Positions 1 through 12,026 are shown, counted from the stretch's first letter. The stretch: 12,241 nt of DNA from Promethearchaeota archaeon (GCA_019894975.1 JAGXNO010000073.1:1-12241), one strand, 5' to 3'. Made by a program: numbers and translations. The notes: generated from the letters alone by a model not told the origin.

Positions 1-627
1 GTCGTAAGGTCTTCCAATAAAACCGTTCTCATCGCCTTCAGAATTAAGGCAGCTCCAGATAAAAGTAATAGTTTCTTGTGGATTTATTAAATCCAATCTA
101 CCTAAAATATCCAAAGATAAGACAGCATAACAATGGATTTCAAGCATCGAGCTTAAAGGATAATACTTTTGAGGAAAGTTCATGTTTAGATACCGGTGCG
201 TATACTCGTCTGTAAATATCTGAAATTCTTCAGAATAATGATCTAAGATATAATCTACTATTCTAGTTCGGTTTATGCAATCTAACTTGCCGAGTGCTTC
301 GAAGATATACAGTCCATAGTATGTCGCCTGTAAGGAAGACTCGTAAATCTGTGGGAAATATCCTAAATTGTCGTAATCGTTGAGTTTTCTTTCGAAAATT
401 GCTTCAATGTCATCTCCATTGTCAATAGACGAGATTTTTGGGTTTAATTTGCTGATTTCATCAGGATTTACCTCAATGTATCCTCGATCGATAGCATCAA
501 AATTATTCTCAATCAATGAAAAGTGTGGCGTCGAAAAGGTGCCAATGAAAATAACTACGATAATAATTGTTTCTATTGTTTTTTCTTTAATTTTAAAATT
601 AGCTTGTGGAGTGGTTAGTTGCATCAT
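1..627 (-). CDS. Secreted/membrane-anchored protein with prenyltransferase/squalene-oxidase-like (alpha/alpha toroid) repeats; continues beyond the left window edge
   Basis: Manual translation: ATG at 627-625 (second ATG 624-622), in-frame TAA upstream at 654-652, open to position 1. Reads MMQLTTPQANFKIKEKTIETIIIVVIFIGTFSTPHF...GYFPQIYESSLQATYYGLYIFEALGKLD...HCYAVLSLDILGRLDLINPQETITFIWSCLNSEGDENGFIGRPYD. It has a hydrophobic N-terminal segment and two 'T/C-Y-x-x-L-x-x-x-x-x-LG-K/R-LD' units resembling prenyltransferase-type repeats. Absent from the ORF track because the stop lies outside the window. Confidence 0.8.
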   Translation of the reverse strand, partial: MMQLTTPQANFKIKEKTIETIIIVVIFIGTFSTPHFSLIENNFDAIDRGYIEVNPDEISKLNPKISSIDNGDDIEAIFERKLNDYDNLGYFPQIYESSLQATYYGLYIFEALGKLDCINRTRIVDYILDHYSEEFQIFTDEYTHRYLNMNFPQKYYPLSSMLEIHCYAVLSLDILGRLDLINPQETITFIWSCLNSEGDENGFIGRPYD

Positions 628-1048: not shown

Positions 1049-2908
1049 TTATGGGACTTGTCCACCATCTATGATAGTCCAACTATAATTATTTATAATA
1101 CTCGCTCTTGCAGTTGTAGCGGCACCTGTGCTATATTGTGAATTGCCTCCATGAAAAGTTACACCATTATGTAAAACTAATTGAGACCAACCGATTAACA
1201 AACTATCATAATTAGTTGTTGATAAAGTTGCCAAAGAAAACATATCCCACATAGTCATAACGTTTGAAACATCCCAATTACCAATGTTTTGGTTAAAGGA
1301 AGTTGCCCCCATGAACATACCCGACATAGAGATTACACTCAACACGTTCCAATTGCTAATATTTCGGTTAAAAGATCTTGCCTCATTGAACGTACCCCAC
1401 ATAGATAAAACATTTGATACATCCCAGCTATTGATGGGCTGGTTGAAAGAAAATGCCTGAGCGAACATGACAGCCATGTCTGTCACGCTCGAAACATCCC
1501 AGCTATCTATGGGCTGGTTAAAGGAAGTTGCAGATTGGAACATAGCGGTCATGTCTGTCACGCTCGAAACATCCCAGCTATTGATGGGCTGGTTGAATGA
1601 AGAAGCAGCGGCGAACATTCTCTCCATGTCTGTCACGCTCGAGACATTCCAACTATCGATGGGATGGTTAAAGGATGAAGCACCTAAAAACTTATTCTTC
1701 ATGGTTGTTACGCTCGAGACATTCCAGCTATTTATGGATTGGTCAAAGGAGGAAGCAGAACTGAACATACTCGCCGTGGTTGTCACGCTCGAGACATCCC
1801 AGCTATCTATGGGTTGGTTAAAGGATGAAGCACCTTGGAACATATTTGCCATGGTTGTCACGCTCGAGATGTCCCAGCTATCTATGGGTTGGTTAAAGGA
1901 TGAAGCATAACTAAACATACTCGTCATTATTGTCACGCTCGAGACATCCCAGTTATTGATGGACTGGTTAAAGGATGAAGCATAACTAAACATACTCGTC
2001 ATTGTTGTCACGCTCGAGACATCCCAGCTATCGATGGGCTGGTTAAAGGAAGTTGCACCATAGAACATGTAGCTCAAATTTATCACATTTGACAGATCAA
2101 AATTGTTCATATTTCCGCTACTTCCCAAATTTTCGCATCCCCTAAATGTATTATTTAAAGTAGTTATTCCTGTTAAATTTAATTTATCAGTTGCAGTAAG
2201 ATTTAGATTAGTACATCCATAAAAATTACTTCCAAAATTCCCTAATTGTAATGAACCCCAATCTTTAATCTCAAGTAGTTTTAATCTATCTCCATTATTA
2301 TTATCATTTTTATGAAACCTCCAACCAAGGATTGTTCCATTTATTGAAATATCATACACACCTTCTGAAGTATATGTATGATTTACTTCTGATTGATTCC
2401 AGCTAATAATCGTATCGATATTTCCATCACCCCAATCAATGGTAAAATTATAGGTTCCAGTTGATTCCAATGGTAATGCAACTTGATTATTAGAACTCGA
2501 ACTTGAACTTGCTAATGTAGTATTCCATACTGAGTTAAAAAATGTATCTATGGAAAAACTGACTGATGTATTTCCAATATTTCCTGCTGAATCATTAGCC
2601 CATACATGTATTGTATTTGAACCATTTCTAAATTTAATAAATTGTGCTGAATTACAAATGACATCTACACCATTCCAGTTGTACCATATTGTATCTATTC
2701 TTATGTTGTCAGTTGCATTAATTTCCAGTAATTGCGTAGTTGCATGATATGTTGTATTAGAAAGGCTGATTATTTGCACTTTTGGGTTTGTTGTATCAAT
2801 TTCTTCGGGTTTTTCAGAAGGACTTATTAGGAAAATAATTACTGTTATAAGAGAACTTACTAATATGACTGATATCAATAAAACTAAGAAATTTTTTTTT
2901 TTTTCCAT
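1049..2908 (-). CDS. BspA-family (DUF285) leucine-rich-repeat surface protein with N-terminal TM anchor, Ig-like and PKD-like domains
   Basis: 619 aa. KKK + hydrophobic helix (aa ~7-28); Ig-like segment ([10 protein letters not shown]...[13 protein letters not shown]); PKD-like FTIDWGDG...[15 protein letters not shown]; 25-aa repeats WDVSSVTxMxxMFxxAxSFNQPIxS; typical C-cap NYDSLLIGW...WTIIDGG. Confidence 0.93.
1277..2101 (-). repeat. Coding tandem array of 11 x 75-bp units (plus a partial 12th) encoding DUF285 repeats
   Basis: Exact 75-nt periodicity; the central units share near-identical DNA (tgtcacgctcgagacatcccagcta...ggttaaaggatgaagca). Confidence 0.95.
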
Positions 2909-3290: not shown

Positions 3291-6200
3291 ATGGTTGAAA
3301 TTGAAGTCAAAAAAATTGAAAGAGATGAAATTATTGTATGTGGAGCTTGTAATAATGCAATTCCAAAAGATTTTCTCGAAAGAAGTGTAGGGCGAGTAAA
3401 AAATCTCTATTGCCAATATTGTGGCGTATCCTTAAACTTGGATTACGATCTAAAAATTAATAATGAAGATGGTGAAAACCATAATAATACTCTTTATACA
3501 CAAGAAGAATCAAGTTTGACTAATATTCAACAGAATAGCCAAGAAAGTGATTTTTCTTTGAGTTACACAAATATAAGGAGCTCTCTACGAAGTTATATTT
3601 TTCAGCTGATTTATCAGTTGTTAAAAAGCACTCCTTTCACCCTTAAAAAAATCCAGAATAAAAAAGAATTGAAAACTTCGCATATAAATATTATACTCAA
3701 AAAAATTTGGAACGAATTAAAAGACTTGAATCCAAATAATTTAGCTAATCAAGAATTGGTAAGCTCAAAACGAAGAATTAAGAATTACTTTGAAGAATTT
3801 CAATCATCGCTACGACCCTACAATAATTTTCGGAAGAAGAATTTTGCTCTTTTTGCAGAAAACATTGAATTCGTTTTCGGGTTAATTTTAGGAGATTATG
3901 AATTCTCAAACCTTACAACCTCTAAAAAACGGATTGTTCTCGATTTAAAAAAGAGGTTTGGATTTAAATCAGATACAGCAACAACGAATTCATTTACTTA
4001 TACCATCTCATTAATCCTAAGTAAAAAGATTCGCAGTATTCCTACTCAATATCACATAACAGAAGGGAATAATAATAAATTAGCGTTAGATGAAATAATT
4101 GGTTATGTAATTGATTATTTAGTCACTAATAAGGTTAAAATATTTGATTTAAGTGAATTTAACAACTCCAAAAAAAAAAAGTTTCATAGAACACTGAAGA
4201 TTTTAATCTATAATTTAAAATCGGACTGGATTTATCGCAAGAGTTTTGAAGATCACATTTATAAATTAACCATAATCGTTAATTCCTTAATAAACAATAT
4301 TGAATATTCGTCCAGCCTTACCGGGTTTGAACGGCTTATTAGCCAAGGATTAAAGCAGTCAGCTCTCTTTGAAAAAGACCAAGATTTCTCTCCTTATTTT
4401 AAACTTAACTTAACTCTAATTTTAAGCCGAATTATATACATAAAAATAAAAAATTCCCCGGGTATAACCAAATTAAACTCTCAACCCGTAAATTTGAGCA
4501 TTACGGAAGAAATTGAAATTAGAAATTCAATTTTAGATGAAATTACAGCAGGTAAAAAAATCAACTCTCAATTATTGAAGAAGTTTTATATGTTCTCGCT
4601 AGAAAAATTTCAAACCTATTATAAAAAATTACAATTAAAATTATCTTCGGATTTGATATATGTGGAGAGCTTTCGTAATTACCTTAGTGACCTTGTAAAA
4701 CTCGTGTTTACTATCGTACATTCAATTTCAAAAAAATCACAACTCACTAAACTCGAACTTGCTGTAATAAAAGATTTAGCGAATTATAATTTTGAATGGT
4801 TCAATAAAAAAGCTCTTGAGAGATATAATGAGAACGAGGATTTGACTACAAAGTCTATGGAATTATTTGAAAAATCTCAAGATGAAAAAGTTTTAATGAA
4901 CCAAATAAGTAAATCTGATGAAATTGTTAGAATTTTTAAATTTAAACCAATAGTTCTAGTAAAATTAATTGAGCAACTAGGAAGAAATTTAAATGTTAGA
5001 CTTGACATTAAAGATGAAATCTACCTGCAGAAAAAAAAGAAGTATACTTATTCTTCAAGTTATTCTGATGGAGATATAGAATTTTGGATCGAATTATATA
5101 AATTAAAGTATTATGGTGGATCTTGGCCGGCTGTTTTTGAATTTATTATTGAATGCAATAACCGTTTTAATCTAAAAATTGATACTCCACATTATTATAA
5201 CGGAATGATACCTATCGCGAAAACATATTTTAAGCAGAATAGCTTGAATTATGAAGAATTTATAATAAAGCATGGAATTTATAAGAGTAAGCAACCATCT
5301 ACTGATGAGATTGTTCTCGAATGGATAAAAATATATCAAAATCGAGATTTAGGGGGATCAATCTCTGCTATTATGAACTATTTAGAAAATCATCAAGGCT
5401 ATACCTTTGGAGAGACAACAATAAGGCGTCATATAAGGAAATTTTTTATGAATGGAAAATATGGAAATTATTTTAGTGAGGATTTAACTTATGATGAATG
5501 GAAAACAAGATATAAAAGAAATTTTTTTAGAGAAGATATGCCTCTTGACCCTAAAACCCAATCACATGAATACATCTTATTATATAATGAAAAAAAAAAT
5601 CAATACAAACGAGTATTTATTAAAGATCTTGAAAATCCAGAATTATTAGAAAATATGGATGAGTTACAGATTCTTGGAATTTCAAACAATTTACAACCAA
5701 AAAAAGTGAATTTTAGTCATTTTGAAAAAAAAGATCTTCAGGAATCCTTAGAAATTGTTTGTAGCCATGGATCAGTAATAATTTCTCCAGAGCAGTATCT
5801 TTACACCATAGATGATGACAGCAACATAATTGAAATTAAGGGACGCGATCTAAAAGTTGGAACGCCAATATTGATGCCAAGAATTTTAAAAATCGATTCA
5901 AATGATGAACCTTTAGATTTAATAAATTGTGGGAAGTTAATAACTAGCAATACTGCTCAATACATCGAGCAATTTGGTAAGAAAGCATATCGATTTATTA
6001 AAAAAAATGCAAATTTAGGAGCGATAATTGGTCAATATGCAGCTGAGGGGACGATGCCATCGAGACATCAACCCGGAACAACAATTTCAGTTAGCGTGGA
6101 TAAAGATTATATTCAAAAGCTTCAAAAAATAATCAAAGAAGTATTTGGGCTAGAGTTTCAAATATTTGCACGAAGAGTTACGGAGTGCAAAAATTGTGGA

Positions 6201-7064
6201 TCTAAAACAATTGAAAAGGGGAATCAAAATATATGTCCTAAATGTGAAGATGGTACCTATAATGAATGTTATGAATTAAGGACAAAAACAAAGTTAGCAA
6301 AAACTATATTTACTGAGGGTTTAGGGTTAAAACATACTTACTCGTATTTAAAAGAAATTCCATCGTTTTTGTATAATTCGCCAACGGATTGTGAGAAAAG
6401 CTTTATATTAAGTTATTTTAAAGGTGATGGATCGGAACTGGATTATCGTAATAAAGGAGGAACCTTTGAACTCAATTTTGTAACCACTTCTAGACGACTA
6501 GTATTCGGTTTGAATTTGCTTATGAAGAAATTAGGAGTTATTATGAGCGTTAGGGCACATAAACCTTCTAATAGGCCGAACTCGAAAAAACTCTATCAGA
6601 TGAGTATTCGGGGTTCTTCTAATTTTGAATTATTAAAACATCATTTCGAAAATTTACCTGAAATTGACTATACTACTAGCGATATTAGAACTTCTGTAAA
6701 TAATCAAATTCTTATGAGAAAATTAAATTTAGAACTTCAAAAGATGTATGGCATTTCATTGAGAGAATTAAGTAATAGGGGAATTATCCCTAAAAATGCA
6801 CAACATATTGCAACTCAATTAAAAAGAAAAACAAACTTGTCAGAAGTGCTCTTATTAAAAACTCTTGATGGGTTAAGAAATGAAAAACTTCTGACTCCCT
6901 TAGTTAAAAAATTGGAGCAAGTCTTTCGAAAAAACACTTTTACCAGAATAAAGAAAATTATATCTTCTAAAACACCTAATAACTCGTATAATATTTCAGT
7001 AGACGGAATCGGATATTGTTCTGGAACTGCTTTTGTATATGTAAAATCTGAAGAAAAAGAATAA
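3291..7064 (+). CDS. Multidomain protein: Zn ribbon + 3 helical repeats + 2 HTH-like repeats + C-terminal degenerate intein (HINT) with LAGLIDADG endonuclease domain
   Basis: 1257 aa, intact. CGAC..CQYC (aa 17-44); HINT-N motifs (LEIVCSHGSVIISPEQYLYT, EIKGRDLKVGTPILMPR); LAGLIDADG motifs LGAIIGQYAAEG and FILSYFKGDG; block H FVTTSRRLVFGLNLLMKKLGV; HINT-C FTRIKKI...SYNISV...VYVKS. Confidence 0.9.
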   Translation: MVEIEVKKIERDEIIVCGACNNAIPKDFLERSVGRVKNLYCQYCGVSLNLDYDLKINNEDGENHNNTLYTQEESSLTNIQQNSQESDFSLSYTNIRSSLRSYIFQLIYQLLKSTPFTLKKIQNKKELKTSHINIILKKIWNELKDLNPNNLANQELVSSKRRIKNYFEEFQSSLRPYNNFRKKNFALFAENIEFVFGLILGDYEFSNLTTSKKRIVLDLKKRFGFKSDTATTNSFTYTISLILSKKIRSIPTQYHITEGNNNKLALDEIIGYVIDYLVTNKVKIFDLSEFNNSKKKKFHRTLKILIYNLKSDWIYRKSFEDHIYKLTIIVNSLINNIEYSSSLTGFERLISQGLKQSALFEKDQDFSPYFKLNLTLILSRIIYIKIKNSPGITKLNSQPVNLSITEEIEIRNSILDEITAGKKINSQLLKKFYMFSLEKFQTYYKKLQLKLSSDLIYVESFRNYLSDLVKLVFTIVHSISKKSQLTKLELAVIKDLANYNFEWFNKKALERYNENEDLTTKSMELFEKSQDEKVLMNQISKSDEIVRIFKFKPIVLVKLIEQLGRNLNVRLDIKDEIYLQKKKKYTYSSSYSDGDIEFWIELYKLKYYGGSWPAVFEFIIECNNRFNLKIDTPHYYNGMIPIAKTYFKQNSLNYEEFIIKHGIYKSKQPSTDEIVLEWIKIYQNRDLGGSISAIMNYLENHQGYTFGETTIRRHIRKFFMNGKYGNYFSEDLTYDEWKTRYKRNFFREDMPLDPKTQSHEYILLYNEKKNQYKRVFIKDLENPELLENMDELQILGISNNLQPKKVNFSHFEKKDLQESLEIVCSHGSVIISPEQYLYTIDDDSNIIEIKGRDLKVGTPILMPRILKIDSNDEPLDLINCGKLITSNTAQYIEQFGKKAYRFIKKNANLGAIIGQYAAEGTMPSRHQPGTTISVSVDKDYIQKLQKIIKEVFGLEFQIFARRVTECKNCGSKTIEKGNQNICPKCEDGTYNECYELRTKTKLAKTIFTEGLGLKHTYSYLKEIPSFLYNSPTDCEKSFILSYFKGDGSELDYRNKGGTFELNFVTTSRRLVFGLNLLMKKLGVIMSVRAHKPSNRPNSKKLYQMSIRGSSNFELLKHHFENLPEIDYTTSDIRTSVNNQILMRKLNLELQKMYGISLRELSNRGIIPKNAQHIATQLKRKTNLSEVLLLKTLDGLRNEKLLTPLVKKLEQVFRKNTFTRIKKIISSKTPNNSYNISVDGIGYCSGTAFVYVKSEEKE
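5541..7049 (+). other. Intein-derived module (HINT-N / LAGLIDADG / HINT-C), predicted non-splicing
   Basis: Intein blocks occur in the canonical order A, B, C, E, H, F, G. Block A lacks a Cys/Ser nucleophile (PLDPKT), block B TxxH is SPEQ, block F Asp is Asn, the terminal His-Asn is Lys-Ser, and only EEKE* follows. Confidence 0.8.
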
Positions 7065-7074
7065 AGAGAGCTAA

Positions 7075-7152
7075 TTATCTAATAACTAAAGCAGGTTTTC
7101 CCGGTAGTGCTTGGCTTGCTTTCTGATCGGTGGAATTCTTTTCAATCAAAAC
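7075..7152 (-). pseudogene. leuS: Displaced, diverged 3'-terminal fragment of leuS (last 25 codons + TAA)
   Basis: Translates [25 protein letters not shown] versus [25 protein letters not shown] at 9231-9308. Ungapped, 60/78 nt and 17/25 aa identical, same strand, same stop position. Confidence 0.93.
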
Positions 7153-7160
7153 TGCTCCTC

Positions 7161-9083
7161 TTAAATCTTTAGATCATACTGGATTTTTTCATTTCTTAGA
7201 CGAAATTGGTTAATAGCGTCATAAAATGGATTTAATTTCATTTCAAATGCGAATTTTTCATTCCTTCTCTCAGGATCCTCTTCTAACTTTTCTTTAATAG
7301 GCAAAATCAAATATTCTTCAGTAAAAAATTTTTTAAATGTTTGCCTAAATTTTTTTTTATTTGGGTAAGGGTAATCCTTTCCACTAACAATCATAGGATA
7401 AGCTTTCATTAAGTTATCTTTAAAATTCCTCAGTGAGAAATCGATTAGAATTGATTCATAACCTTTAATGTTTAAATTTTTATCTTCTGACTCTATGAGT
7501 TCATTGGATTCATTTTTGGACTTTTTTAATTCAGTTAATAATAATTGTCTCTGACTTTCTATTAATGTAGCACCAAGAACATTTATCCACTTATCGTATA
7601 AATCAAGAATTACGTCAGGTTCAAAATTCTCAGTTACAAAATCAGGATAGAAAAAAGCTCCATGATCTCCAATTTTTCCTTTTTTCTCACTATATTTTTG
7701 TGGTCTTTCATAGTCTAGGAAAAAGAAATAAATTCGATCTTTTAATGGTCTGTTGATAGTCAGTGCTTGTATCGTTTTATCAATACCTCCTATGTTTTCA
7801 ACAGATATTGGAAATAATAACCATTTGTTATCAAAATAATATTTCATAAGTGTTTTCTCAGTTCCACCTTCCGTATATAAAACAAAGGGAGTAGAGGCAA
7901 ATAAGCCAAAATCAGCTAGAACCGATCCTCTAAACTCTATAGCCTCTGACTCATTATTCAAATAAAAATAAGGTTGCTCTTTTTCTTTATTTTTAGGCCA
8001 AATTATCAAATTAAATTCAAATAATTCCCATGTAATTCTCGTTAGGTTTCTCAATAAAGCTAAAATGTTTACTGAAATATTTAAATTTCCATAAAGTTTA
8101 CTTAGTTTATTTTTGCGAATCACATCTAATAAGTTTTCCAAGCTTTCAAGACCGTTTATTTTATTTTTCGAAGAATGAATAAAGTGGTGATATATCCGGC
8201 TATACATTTTCTTTAAAATATCCTGTTCTCCTTGCGTTAGAAAATTCCTCTTATCGTTTAATTTTTCATTAGTCCAGTTTTTAAATTTAGCAAGTACTTC
8301 TTCTCTTTCATTTTTATCAAATTGAGATTTAGTATTTAGTTGCGGATAAATATTTACGCCACTTGGTGTTATAAAATACTCCCCAAAAAGCATAAGTGAA
8401 TCCAATTTTATCCATACTTTAAGGAAATCAAAAAACAGCCAATGAGAACCAGTCAAATGCCGATAAAAATTATCAGAGACTTTTTTATATCTAATAGCCT
8501 GCTTTAAATCTTTTTTATTTTTTCTTATCTGCTGGCGTTTTTGCCTAAAAGTTCTTTCTTTAGAGTTTTTGACATTTTTATTGTACATTTCGAATCTTCT
8601 CTTAATTTTAGTCTCTCTCCATTTTTTCTCTTCATTTTCTATTCTCCTTAGCTGTTTTTTCCTCTTTTTTCCTTCAATATTAATATTGATATATTTTTTT
8701 TGCAAATAGTAATAAAACTTGCTTTCCTTGCTATAATATTTCTTAAAACTATCCCAATACAATATGAATTGAAAAAATTGAAAAGGATGGTAAAATTTAA
8801 TGAAGTCTTTCTCTTTTGGTTCATTTGGAAAAAAACTGAATCTTCCTCTTCTATCTAGTTCCTGTCCGTATTCCGAATCTGCTTTTGTAATATAAATTGG
8901 TTGAAACAAATTATTCTCTTCTAGAAAATCTAAAAGATGATAACATTCAGTAATTTCACCTTTATATTGCACATAACCAAGTTCCTCGGCCCAATTAAAT
9001 AATCCTTTTCTTGAAAGTAGATTCCGATGTAAAAATGGTGAGTAACTTTCCCATATATCAAAAACAGTTGTCGATTCTATCAT
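7161..9083 (-). CDS. Hypothetical protein with C-terminal TOPRIM-like (OLD-family-type) nuclease domain
   Basis: 640 aa. FVLYTEGGTEKTLM...ISVENIGG...FFFLDYE...TENF matches the TOPRIM pattern hhhhEGxxE...hhxxGG...hhhDxD/E. A basic coiled-coil-like stretch lies near aa 135-200. No Walker A motif was seen. Confidence 0.75.
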   Translation of the reverse strand: MIESTTVFDIWESYSPFLHRNLLSRKGLFNWAEELGYVQYKGEITECYHLLDFLEENNLFQPIYITKADSEYGQELDRRGRFSFFPNEPKEKDFIKFYHPFQFFQFILYWDSFKKYYSKESKFYYYLQKKYININIEGKKRKKQLRRIENEEKKWRETKIKRRFEMYNKNVKNSKERTFRQKRQQIRKNKKDLKQAIRYKKVSDNFYRHLTGSHWLFFDFLKVWIKLDSLMLFGEYFITPSGVNIYPQLNTKSQFDKNEREEVLAKFKNWTNEKLNDKRNFLTQGEQDILKKMYSRIYHHFIHSSKNKINGLESLENLLDVIRKNKLSKLYGNLNISVNILALLRNLTRITWELFEFNLIIWPKNKEKEQPYFYLNNESEAIEFRGSVLADFGLFASTPFVLYTEGGTEKTLMKYYFDNKWLLFPISVENIGGIDKTIQALTINRPLKDRIYFFFLDYERPQKYSEKKGKIGDHGAFFYPDFVTENFEPDVILDLYDKWINVLGATLIESQRQLLLTELKKSKNESNELIESEDKNLNIKGYESILIDFSLRNFKDNLMKAYPMIVSGKDYPYPNKKKFRQTFKKFFTEEYLILPIKEKLEEDPERRNEKFAFEMKLNPFYDAINQFRLRNEKIQYDLKI

Positions 9084-9207
9084 TATTATTAAGCTGATAC
9101 CATTTGTTTTACATTATATTCCAAAATTCCTTAAATTCAAACAATTAATTTGTTTAATAATAATTAAGATGTTTTATTAATTTTTTAATATGATATAATG
9201 ACCTACA

Positions 9208-9230
9208 GAAACCCAAATAAACCAAATAAA
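9208..9230 (-). terminator. Candidate T-rich archaeal terminator after leuS
   Basis: The minus strand reads TTTATTTGGTTTATTTGGGTTT immediately after the leuS TAA. Confidence 0.3.
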
Positions 9231-12026
9231 TTATCCTATTATTAAAGCTGGTTTTCCAGGTAGTGCTTGAATTGCTTTCTTTTCATTGGATTCTTTTTCA
9301 AATAATACCGTAACCTTACAATCGAATCTCTTCTCAACGATTGAGGCGATATCTTCAAAAAACTGATATTCTTCGCTGGCTGAAAGAATAACATTTGAGT
9401 ATTTTCCAATGTTTTTCAACACTTTTTTTATTGTTTGAACCACGAATTTACTATGTTTTTTATATTCATCGTGTTCCATGATTTCTTTCGTAATGATGCC
9501 TTGATTTGTGGTTTTTTCAATTAACGATAAGAGATCTGTGTAGAACTTAAATTTCCATTCGTCAGCTATGATAATTGTAATTTCGTTCAGTTTGTCAGTT
9601 TTAGTTGCTTGCTTAATGTTATGAATATCTTCTATTATGGTATTCAAGAGATTCCTTTTAAATTCGTTTTCCCTCGTTAAAATATTGTCGTTGTAGGATG
9701 GCCAGGGTGCTATAGTAACAAATCCTTCTTTTCCAAGTATCTCCCAAAGCTCTTCTGTGATATGCGGAGCAATTGGATGAAAAAGTAATATTAATTTTTC
9801 GATACACTCATTAAAAATATCGTTTTGTCCGCCGCCTTCTTTATATTTTCTGAGCTCTGAAGTAAATTGGATTATATGATTAATAACATCTCGTAAGGCA
9901 ACTTTATCGAAACTTTCGGAAACGGTTTTAATAGTTTTATGCAAGTTATAGAGAATTAACTGATCGCTTATAGAATGCTTTTCCCGGACAGGTTTAATTG
10001 GTTCTAATAGGAGGTAAAAAATATTCTTAATAAATTTATAAGCAAAACCAATCCCTTCGTCAGACCATTCCAAACCGGATTCGGGACTAGCTCCAAAAAG
10101 AATAAAAAATCTTGAGGCATCTGCTCCATATTTATTCATCAACCCAATTGGATCCACCGTATTACCTAGACTTTTGCTCATCTTAACGCTTTTTAATATA
10201 TATTTAGTTCCACATCTTTTACAAGTTTCGTTCTGCATTTCAGCTTTCATAGCAAAAGTTTCACAATTCGAACAGTAAGGGTGGGCTTTATTGACCATTC
10301 CTTGAGTTAATAATCGTTGAAATGGTTCATCAAATTTGTGCAGTCCAAGATCTCGAGCAACTCGGGTAAAGAAACGTGCGTACATTAAATGAAGAATGGC
10401 ATGTTCGATTCCTCCTGCATAGAAATCAACATTCATCCAATAATCTGCTATTTCTTTTTTGTACGGTAAATTTTTCTCATTCGGATCGCAATACCTGAAG
10501 AAATACCATGAACTATCTACGAATGTGTCCATAGTATCTGTTTCCCTTTTTGCTTGTTTCCCACATTTTGGACAAGGGACATTAACATAAGTCTCACTCG
10601 TTTTTAAAGGATTTCCTCTTCCCGTAAAGGTAACATCTTTTGGTAACTCCACAGGTAAATCATCGAAAGGAACGGGTACGATACCACAAGTATCACAATA
10701 GATAATTGGTATTGGGCACCCCCAATAGCGTTGTCGGGAAATTAGCCAATCTCTTAGTTTGTAGTTTACAGTTTCTTGTCCCACATCTATTGAAGAAAGT
10801 TTTTTAGATATAGCGTTTATCGCGGATCGGTTTTCCATACCATCAAACTCATTTGAGTTCACTAAAGTTCCATCACCTTCATAGGCTCGGATCATTTTTT
10901 CAGCATTTAATTCGTAATCAAATGGTTGAATAACAACTTTTATTGGGATATCGAATTTCTTGGCAAATTCAAAATCCCGTTGGTCGTGTCCAGGGACTGC
11001 CATAACGGCTCCCGCACCATATTCGTAAATGACAAAATTACCAATATATATAGGGATCTCCTCTTTAGTTAGAGGGTTAATCGCATGTTTTCCAATAAAT
11101 ATGCCTTTCTTCTCAACTTCTATGTCTGTTCTTTGAAATTTATTCTGTCTAATAGTTTCCGTATAAAGGTTCTGAAAATCAGATTCATATTTGGTCTTTT
11201 CTACCCATTTCTTAACCCAAGGATGCTCGGGGGCAAATACCATAAATGTGACTCCATACAATGTATCTGGTCGAGTAGTAAAAATATCAATGGTTCTTTT
11301 TTCCCCAACAATTGGAAATTTTATTATAGTTCCCTCTGATCTTCCAATCCAATTACGCTGCATCGTTTTCACTTTTTCTGGCCAATCAACCGTATCTAAA
11401 CCGTCCAAAAGTTCTTCGGCGTAATCTCGAATTTTTAAAAGCCACTGGGTTAAAAATCGTTGTTCTACTTCAGAACTGCAACGCCAACATTTACCGCTTT
11501 GAACTTGCTCGTTAGCTAGCACAGTTACGCATTTTGGGCACCAATTCACGTAACTTTCTTGTCTATAAGCCAAACCTTTCTCGTACATTTTTAAGAAAAA
11601 CCATTGATCCCACTTGTAATATTTAGGGTCATGAGAATAGACCATACGGGTCCAATCATATGAGAGTCCTATACGTTTTTGTTGTTCCTGAATTGATTTC
11701 ATATTAAGGTTTGTCCACTCTTCAGGATCCACTCCATGATCAATTGCCGCGTTTTCAGCAGGTAGTCCATAGCTATCGTAACCCATTGGGTATAAAACAT
11801 TAAACCCTTTCATCCTTTTAAATCTTGCAAACGAATCTCCTATTGAATAATTACGAAGGTGTCCAATATGCAAATCAGAGCTTGGATAAGGATACATCTC
11901 TAATACGTAATATTTTTCTTTTCCACCTTTGCTTAGATCTTCTTTGACTTCGAAAATCTTCTCTTTTTCCCAAATTTCTTGCCATTTTTTCTCGATTTTT
12001 TGAAAATCGTATTCAATATTAGTCAT
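9231..12026 (-). CDS. leuS: Leucyl-tRNA synthetase (bacterial-type catalytic core, archaeal-type C-terminal domain)
   Basis: 931 aa. [13 protein letters not shown] (HIGH at 11859-11870), [21 protein letters not shown] and [13 protein letters not shown] editing motifs, [41 protein letters not shown] (10170-10184), C-terminal [10 protein letters not shown]. Confidence 0.98.

Follow-up and report, generated by a model that had tools for sequence, protein, structure and literature searches.

A likely WHO-type homing element that replaces the 3′ part of leuS in Asgard archaea

What placed a nuclease gene, a duplicated gene end and an unrelated cargo gene directly downstream of leuS in a Promethearchaeota archaeon? 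The stretch of DNA analyzed here, referred to as the window, is a complete contig of 12,241 bp (GCA_019894975.1, JAGXNO010000073.1:1-12241; contig C146 of our genome G000) from a low-GC Promethearchaeota (Asgard) bin. A preliminary description of the window had reported a non-splicing HINT-LAGLIDADG gene, a displaced leuS fragment and a cargo gene, all downstream of leuS, and all four features were found where it had placed them: a bacterial-type leuS of 931 amino acids (aa) with class I tRNA-synthetase, LeuRS editing and anticodon-binding domains in Pfam (9231-12026, minus strand), a 640-aa cargo gene (P0002, 7161-9083, minus strand) placed between two copies of the leuS tail, the displaced tail copy (7060-7152, minus strand) and a 1257-aa nuclease gene (P0001, 3291-7064, plus strand). 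It had also proposed an archaeal analogue of the yeast WHO elements, which occur in Torulaspora and Lachancea with FBA1 as host gene (Coughlan et al., 2020, PMC7282813; Osborne, Monnin and Wolfe, 2026, bioRxiv 10.64898/2026.08.13.744650). Defining features of WHO elements are a LAGLIDADG gene that is related to inteins, has no exteins and follows an essential gene, a nuclease combined with a replacement 3′ part, discordant phylogenies of the 5′ and 3′ parts, 3′ fragments that start at the cleavage site, a target in an active-site motif and clusters of relics (bioRxiv 10.64898/2026.08.13.744650; PMC7282813). They have been described as a third, very rare category of homing element, reported from a few yeasts only. 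The core of the analogy is strongly supported by comparison with relatives, through the linkage of nuclease and host gene, a common junction, a chimeric leuS and a pair of occupied and empty loci. We consider it likely that a WHO-type homing element is present in the window and that, in these Asgard archaea, a nuclease of intein origin acts by 3′-end replacement.

The proposed element would consist of the free-standing, non-splicing LAGLIDADG nuclease gene (3291-7064) and the leuS 3′ part comprising codons 543-931 (9231-10400). The nuclease would cut unoccupied leuS alleles in the DNA that encodes GGIEH↓A(V/I)MHLxYARFF (the arrow marks the predicted cut), and repair of the break from an occupied allele would install a resistant leuS 3′ part together with the nuclease gene and neighboring DNA, with the recipient's own 3′ part displaced downstream as a fragment beginning at the cut. 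Because leuS would be restored by replacement rather than by splicing, the site would stay open to more insertions and could become a landing pad for cargo and defence genes. In the window, the interval from leuS to the nuclease gene would have received the 640-aa cargo cassette, together with a new 25-codon tail, in a second and later event. Nucleases of a sister clade would act likewise at nrdD, at the insertion site of a related NrdD intein.

The association of the nuclease gene with leuS is consistent across relatives. We separated a leuS clade (at least 50% identity; 50-95% to the window module) from an nrdD clade (~35% identity). In the leuS clade, leuS adjoins the nuclease gene in every contig with enough flanking sequence (about 13: the window, L010/L123, L012/L116, L062, L063/64, L065/66/124, L115, L122, L125, L126, L127, L128 and L117/118), and the two genes are convergent in almost all of them, 0-620 nucleotides (nt) apart or separated only by small cargo. 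The window has the same arrangement, with the nuclease gene tail-to-tail with leuS and the replacement leuS 3′ part travelling along. This adjacency, together with leuS fragments beyond the nuclease gene in several contigs, bears out the co-occurrence of nuclease family and leuS that the preliminary description had named as a check of its proposal. Upstream of leuS the loci are syntenic (radical SAM, LplA, F420 ligase, CofD); on the far side of the nuclease gene the neighbors differ from contig to contig (DUF285, MT-A70 methylase, HD-CE/HATPase gene, TFIIB/AAA genes), and the nuclease gene is the sole gene common to all occupied leuS loci. In L062 (11449-11673), a 74-aa PycTM-like open reading frame (ORF) lies between leuS and the nuclease gene, in a position matching that of the window cargo.

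Displaced leuS 3′ parts converge on a single point. A second leuS 3′ part is found beyond the nuclease gene in L063, L065/L124, L126 and L127, the nuclease gene stands between intact leuS and an older displaced fragment in L063, L065, L122, L126 and L127, and one locus (G041) has a displaced 3′ part and no nuclease gene. Six distinct junctions (L063, L065/L124, L126, L127, G041 and an interruption in L069/L117) fall within ~4 nt of one point, directly after the His542 codon of GGIEH↓A(V/I)MHLxYARFF, and the sequences upstream of them are mutually unrelated. In the window this point lies between positions 10401 and 10400, ~390 codons before the leuS stop. It divides leuS into a host-type 5′ part that runs to His542 of GGIEH (codons 1-542; 10401-12026, minus strand), of which the counterparts in relatives track host phylogeny, and a 3′ part of the allele class that travels with the nuclease (codons 543-931 and stop; 9231-10400, minus strand). 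The common junction is likely the cleavage site, which would thus be mid-gene, and the putative homing site (GGAGGAATCGAACAT↓GCCATTCTTCATTTA, 10386-10415, minus strand) spans it. The preliminary description had expected cleavage near the leuS 3′ end, at the equivalent of position ~9308; its link between the nuclease and replacement of the 3′ part is strongly supported, and the predicted position moves to the junction after His542. Ordinary alleles read VDQYIGGIEH↓A(V/I)MHL at this site and element-type alleles VD(L/F)YVGGIEH↓AILHL or ↓SILHL; the window has the element type, reading AILHL after the junction.

Other fragments fill in the history of the site. Shorter leuS fragments start at codons ~805, ~864 and ~886 (G023, G050, G070, L122/L114) and are found either beside a recurring downstream pair, a 289-aa gene and TIM, or beyond the nuclease gene; we read them as truncated relics. 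The tandem clusters and relics that characterize WHO-type elements were found in L122 (in the order leuS, cargo, tail, nuclease, tail), in L127, where two leuS 3′ parts flank the nuclease gene, and in G007 and G053, with two nrdD fragments each. Two doubts raised in the preliminary description can be set aside on this evidence. It had regarded a nuclease gene outside the duplicated interval as a departure from WHO, and in L122, L063, L065, L126 and L127 the nuclease gene lies inside it; convergent orientation is no departure either, since WHO genes can run opposite to FBA1 (PMC7282813). We also observed two partial loci with no 5′ part nearby, where the nuclease gene adjoins only a pseudogenised leuS 3′ part from codon 544 (L127:5780-6946) or only an nrdD 3′ part from ~codon 557 with stops (L120:11475-11918). 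These look like older element copies displaced downstream. A further observation comes from two different metagenome-assembled genomes (MAGs), in which 29 extra nt interrupt the leuS frame exactly at GGIEH↓AVMHL (L069:3560-3610 and L117:13512-13560). The interrupted gene reads GGTATCGAAC-[29 nt]-ACGCAGTA with flanking TCGAA repeats, and 233 nt upstream is a nuclease gene of the P0047 type in the same orientation. The interruption could be a pseudogene lesion, a repair scar or a tiny intervening sequence; a bulge-helix-bulge intron was considered and set aside, as the folding was not convincing (z -1.06).

If 3′ parts have been exchanged at the junction, the two halves of leuS should have different histories, and they do: leuS is chimeric. 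We aligned 35 leuS genes and four displaced fragments, split the alignment at the junction and built separate trees. In the 3′ tree, all nuclease-linked genes together with those of G041, G023 and G050 form one clade (Shimodaira-Hasegawa-like approximate likelihood ratio test support 99) to which the window 3′ part belongs; the four displaced fragments are all placed within the ordinary alleles of the bin's genus. In the 5′ tree the same genes are scattered among ordinary alleles and track host phylogeny, and a single clade for the 5′ parts of nuclease-linked genes is rejected (approximately unbiased test, p 8.8e-90). The nuclease tree is congruent with the 3′ tree, with the same three groups. 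The clearest single case is an occupied and an empty locus in near-identical backgrounds. L062 and G021 differ by 3 mismatches in 1180 nt over codons 135-527 (99.7% identical); from codon 528 on, ~30 nt ahead of the junction, they are only 55-88% identical. In G021 leuS is followed by the 289-aa gene and then TIM, which is the empty arrangement, and these two genes also follow the displaced fragments in G041, G023, G050 and G070. In a sliding comparison, the window leuS is a mosaic at 85% identity to both L010 and L012, and no breakpoint was located in this close group.

The nuclease itself has the architecture of an intein that has lost its host protein. Residues ~757-1257 of P0001 (5559-7064, plus strand) match Intein_splicing and LAGLIDADG_3 in Pfam, as a HINT domain with a two-motif LAGLIDADG domain inserted. 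The AlphaFold model (pLDDT 82, pTM 0.84) finds its best match among solved folds in TliVMA (7qss, E 1e-22), with PI-PkoII and PI-PfuI also recovered and PI-SceI more weakly, and the family profile matches solved archaeal inteins. The protein ends in VYVKSEEKE and a stop, and in the alignment K-S replaces the intein His-Asn and no C-extein follows. All 10 free-standing members lack the terminal His-Asn and C-extein, with K-S, K-K or similar before the stop; the sole true intein of the aligned set, P0051 inside NrdD, retains them (YAHN|S, keeping HN and S). As judged from these sequences, the free-standing members cannot splice, because the terminal His-Asn is replaced and there is no C-extein. 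P0001 does not qualify as a canonical splicing intein, as it is not embedded in a host protein and has neither the block G His-Asn nor a +1 Cys/Ser/Thr. It falls outside the WHO/HO/VDE family as well, having no C-terminal zinc finger, a C-terminal module preceded by N-terminal extensions, and archaeal inteins as nearest kin. The two LAGLIDADG motifs (6030-6050 and 6414-6434, plus strand) keep their acidic residues, E919 in GQYAAEG and D1046 in KGDGS. Since both are conserved across the free-standing members, nuclease activity has probably been kept. P0001 also retains Ser757 (intein position 1) and the block-B His826, which makes N-terminal self-cleavage conceivable.

This family is small and unevenly spread. 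An all-against-library search with the module returned only 11 representative clusters at E < 1e-30. One of these is the NrdD intein P0051, the closest canonical intein (36% identity); in the others, no more than ~40 residues follow the module before the protein ends. P0001-type genes are intact across orthologues of 66-94% identity. Their distribution is patchy: within the bin's genus, matches of any kind occur in 5 of 24 genomes, and the leuS-linked form is found in none. A third clade (P0053/54, ~30% identity) is without the block-B His. Within the module, P0001 has a Cys4 insert (6186-6254, plus strand). The module is preceded by an N-terminal domain of ~200 aa (residues ~533-756; 4890-5558, plus strand), which also occurs in the ~750-aa forms of this family, with 62-65% identity to L062, L063 and L065 by tblastn, and by a lineage-specific N-terminal extension (residues 1-~532; 3291-4889, plus strand) with a Cys4 zinc ribbon at residues 17-45. 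Family proteins range from 545 to 1651 aa with interchangeable N-termini, and the DNA upstream of window nt ~5001 differs from that of the otherwise 96.5% identical relative L122, so that the first ~570 codons of P0001 (window 3291-5000) are replaced relative to the 1033-aa protein of L122. Regions resembling the P0001 N-terminus also occur in three other ORFs of ~900-1000 aa in G011; a 926-aa gene upstream of the nrdD-linked nuclease in that genome proved unrelated to it.

The same pattern is seen at a second host gene. In the nrdD clade, the nuclease gene is convergent with nrdD in 11 of the 12 contigs; in L072, it sits between nrdD and its activase. In both G053 and L120, an nrdD 3′ part runs from ~codon 557, only a few codons downstream of where the related intein is inserted (553-556). 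We also observed two nrdD 3′ fragments, starting at ~566 and ~644, in each of L110 (G053:C6, 4700-11200) and L068 (G007:C23, 1600-4460). The cargo between them consists of SUKH/DUF6891 and DUF285 genes in G053 and of ferredoxin-type and FUR-like genes in G007, and a DUF285 gene neighbors the nuclease gene in the window too (1049-2908). Canonical inteins (ORFs of 1187-1224 aa) occupy other nrdD positions, ~codons 186 and 216, in G013:C207, G002:C15, G017:C83 and G045:C35, and G002 has an nrdD 3′ fragment ~1 kb downstream of nrdD.

The small leuS fragment of the window has a different origin. The current leuS tail, L012-like (last 25 codons, stop and 15 nt; 9216-9308, minus strand), and the displaced tail (7060-7152, minus strand; coding remnant of 25 codons and stop at 7075-7152) form a direct repeat of 93 nt with 74% identity. 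The displaced copy adjoins the stop of the nuclease gene and matches the intact leuS tail of L010 in 23 of 25 residues (tblastn E 8e-10), far beyond chance. No further leuS fragment was found in the window. Because the displaced copy is of element type and starts at codon 907, it cannot be assigned to the event at His542, and it appears to record a later, separate insertion of the cargo cassette and a new tail between leuS and the nuclease gene. The preliminary reading of displaced leuS 3′ fragments as nuclease products fits the fragments at His542 in relatives and, taken alone, does not account for the one in the window. The cassette has conserved ends, from ~110 nt upstream of the ATG to 12 nt past the stop; its left end is the cargo-proximal ~110 nt, common to L010, of the spacer between leuS stop and cargo ATG (9084-9230, minus strand). 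In the window a new tail precedes it and the old tail follows; in L010 it comes after the leuS tail without duplication and with no decayed tail fragment between cargo and nuclease gene; in L012 it lies upstream of leuS. L122, 96.5% identical to the window from nt 5001 on, has the same structure and in addition an ordinary-type tail beyond the nuclease gene, which the window lacks because its DNA upstream of nt ~5001 differs.

P0002 is conserved in Asgard contigs, and no family or fold was found for it in Pfam, PADLOC, NCBIfam, a PDB profile search or a Foldseek search with its AlphaFold model. It has invariant acidic motifs (E405-G-x-x-E409 and D457-x-E459), and the putative catalytic stretch is unfolded in the model; a TOPRIM-like reading was neither confirmed nor excluded by these searches. 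Homologues lie beside a cyclic-oligonucleotide-based antiphage signaling system (CBASS) pair, SMODS and SAVED, and beside DUF3800, GIY-YIG and HFX_2341_N genes (L013:2456-8331 and L012:5551-9923), and this context suggests a defence-island gene. Cargo differs among related loci, in agreement with the variable cassette site downstream of leuS that had been proposed. In L058 (G023:C7, 3501-14309), intact leuS and the displaced fragment are separated by a cluster of 11 genes for cobalamin salvage and transport (CobS, CobD, CobQ, ABC transporter and others), so capture at this site extends to metabolic operons. In G041 the corresponding position is occupied by a 1221-aa gene that shows no relationship to P0001 and no family match. 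For the small fragment only, P0002 could itself be a site-specific nuclease that forms, with the new leuS tail, a second homing element cutting at ~codon 907. The conserved cassette ends at three positions relative to leuS (window, L010, L012), the invariant acidic motifs, and an order of new tail, gene and displaced tail that mirrors the larger element all speak for it. We nevertheless hold this rather unlikely, given the lack of a family, fold or PDB match, the unfolded catalytic stretch, the cassette without displaced tail in L010 and the occurrence of P0002 elsewhere in defence-island contexts unrelated to leuS.

Could the same loci have arisen without homing? A recombination hotspot with a passenger nuclease, where one-sided homologous and illegitimate recombination during gene transfer builds a genomic island downstream of leuS, would explain why G041 (with the 1221-aa gene) and G023 (with the cobalamin operon) show leuS replacement without a nuclease gene, and why the 25-codon fragment and those from codons ~805, ~864 and ~886 start off the common site. 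It gives no reason for six independent junctions within ~4 nt of one point in a conserved motif, for the crossover of L062/G021 30 nt from that point, for the nuclease gene as the only shared gene of occupied loci, for congruent nuclease and leuS 3′ trees, or for the recurrence of the pattern at nrdD, where a separate nuclease clade is found and the position is that of an intein homing site. We therefore regard it as unlikely. Still less probable is a domesticated, HO-like nuclease kept by the host for a programmed break (e.g., cassette exchange in a defence island) or for WhiA-like regulation, although the protein is a large fusion that carries zinc ribbons and an N-terminal extension of 750 aa, its gene has stayed intact in divergent orthologues, variable cargo adjoins it and the third clade without the block-B His occurs away from leuS and nrdD. 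The patchy distribution among the genomes of the genus, the polymorphism of occupied and empty loci between near-identical backgrounds, pseudogenised element copies (L127) and host-gene 3′ parts that travel with the nuclease gene are instead what marks a selfish element. Integrative elements typically have duplicated gene ends on either side of the inserted DNA, and an integrase-type element could use leuS as its attachment site and carry a replacement 3′ end, as happens with tRNA genes. The duplicated ends seen here and a DDE transposase gene ~9 kb from leuS in L062 are in line with this. We rejected it as highly improbable, as no integrase or recombinase gene was found in the window, L010, L012, L063, L065, G041 or G023, the replaced segment is ~1.2 kb at 55-85% identity instead of a short identical att core, and the left crossover point is variable.

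A homing element of WHO type also has points to answer. L062 matches the empty allele exactly over codons 539-547, which rules out the right half-site as the basis of any immunity at that locus. In G041 and G023, a replaced 3′ part and a displaced fragment are present and the nuclease gene is not, which a presumed loss of the gene would explain. In L069/L117, the nuclease gene lies upstream of a leuS broken at the site. The window itself has no ordinary-type fragment, its only fragment lying between cargo and nuclease gene; this requires a second event for which the nuclease model alone does not account. At nrdD, fragments start at several points (~557, 567, 615, 644-655) and chimerism was not recovered: the 3′ part offers too little length and variation to resolve the tree, in which the nuclease-adjacent genes are not gathered in a single clade. 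The third clade (P0053/54) adjoins neither leuS nor nrdD. Finally, every sequence used comes from a MAG or a metagenome contig, and the contig of the window has probably been mis-binned.

The last point follows from the bin itself (contamination 8.55%). It contains a second, ordinary leuS (66% identical) on a 193-kb contig (L061; G000:C98:139000-148000), followed by the empty-site genes, the 289-aa gene and TIM, and this suggests that the 12-kb window contig probably comes from another population. Genus-wide, every genome has a bacterial-type LeuRS (PF13603 editing domain) and a second paralogue of ~970 aa, with ~30% identity over the C-terminal part. The remaining genes of the window, beyond the nuclease gene, are a prenyltransferase fragment (1-627, minus strand) and the gene of the DUF285 protein (1049-2908, minus strand).

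In the collection of papers that we searched, no archaeal or bacterial report of WHO-like elements was found. In a wider reading, which we hold to be about evenly balanced, the Asgard elements would be a WHO-type class independent of yeast, in which an NrdD intein escaped while keeping its homing site and a daughter was retargeted to the catalytic GGIEH motif of leuS. The displaced fragment would serve as the downstream homology arm, the site would recruit defence and metabolic cargo, selfish nucleases would both build and shuffle islands beside essential genes, and the P0002 cassette may be a second, stacked nuclease element. The WHO architecture in Asgard archaea, derived from another intein and found at two different essential host genes, would make homing by 3′-end replacement a recurrent evolutionary solution and not a yeast oddity. 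The route from an intein to a free-standing nuclease and on to a new target could then be traced, because the nrdD clade sits at the intein's own site. It would also offer a concrete mechanism for chimeric aminoacyl-tRNA synthetase genes and for islands beside essential genes in archaea, and it yields candidate nucleases with long recognition sites and predicted targets.

Among known systems, the yeast WHO elements are the closest counterpart. Both have an extein-less, intein-related LAGLIDADG nuclease as a separate gene just downstream of an essential host gene, both combine the nuclease gene with a replacement 3′ part of the host gene so that 5′ and 3′ phylogenies differ, and in both, displaced 3′ fragments start from one site in a conserved active-site motif while relics and pseudogenes pile up downstream. 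They differ in that the elements described here are archaeal, with leuS and nrdD instead of FBA1 as hosts, and have archaeal inteins (the NrdD intein, and TliVMA by fold) rather than VDE/HO as nearest kin. The archaeal proteins lack the C-terminal zinc finger and are instead extended at the N-terminus by 200-750 aa, those of the leuS clade also have a Cys4 insert, and their loci capture unrelated cargo such as defence-type genes and a cobalamin operon. Archaea have no diploid phase, so homing would have to follow DNA transfer, and cleavage by the archaeal enzymes is a prediction. Since the proteins lie outside the WHO/HO/VDE lineage and are without its C-terminal zinc finger, the archaeal elements appear to be an independent invention, analogous to WHO. 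Canonical inteins (PI-SceI/VDE, TliVMA, PI-PfuI and NrdD inteins) have the same HINT fold interrupted by a two-motif LAGLIDADG domain, and likewise keep a Ser at position 1 and the His of block B; nucleases of the nrdD clade appear to share a homing site with the related NrdD intein. In contrast, the archaeal module is not embedded, has no C-extein or His-Asn, and its host gene would be restored by 3′ replacement and not by splicing. The Seg and Mob proteins of T-even phages are free-standing homing endonucleases with intronless homing, e.g., mobE near nrd genes (PMC2790892). They resemble the archaeal elements in having a free-standing nuclease gene beside the target that is mobilized with flanking DNA by break repair, with ribonucleotide reductase genes as frequent hosts, but they are GIY-YIG or HNH enzymes, not intein-derived, and leave neither a displaced 3′ copy nor a long replacement segment. 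HO of Saccharomyces likewise descends from an intein; this LAGLIDADG nuclease no longer splices and has acquired an additional DNA-binding region. It has been domesticated for mating-type switching and has no link to a replaced host-gene end, whereas the distribution of the archaeal nucleases looks selfish.

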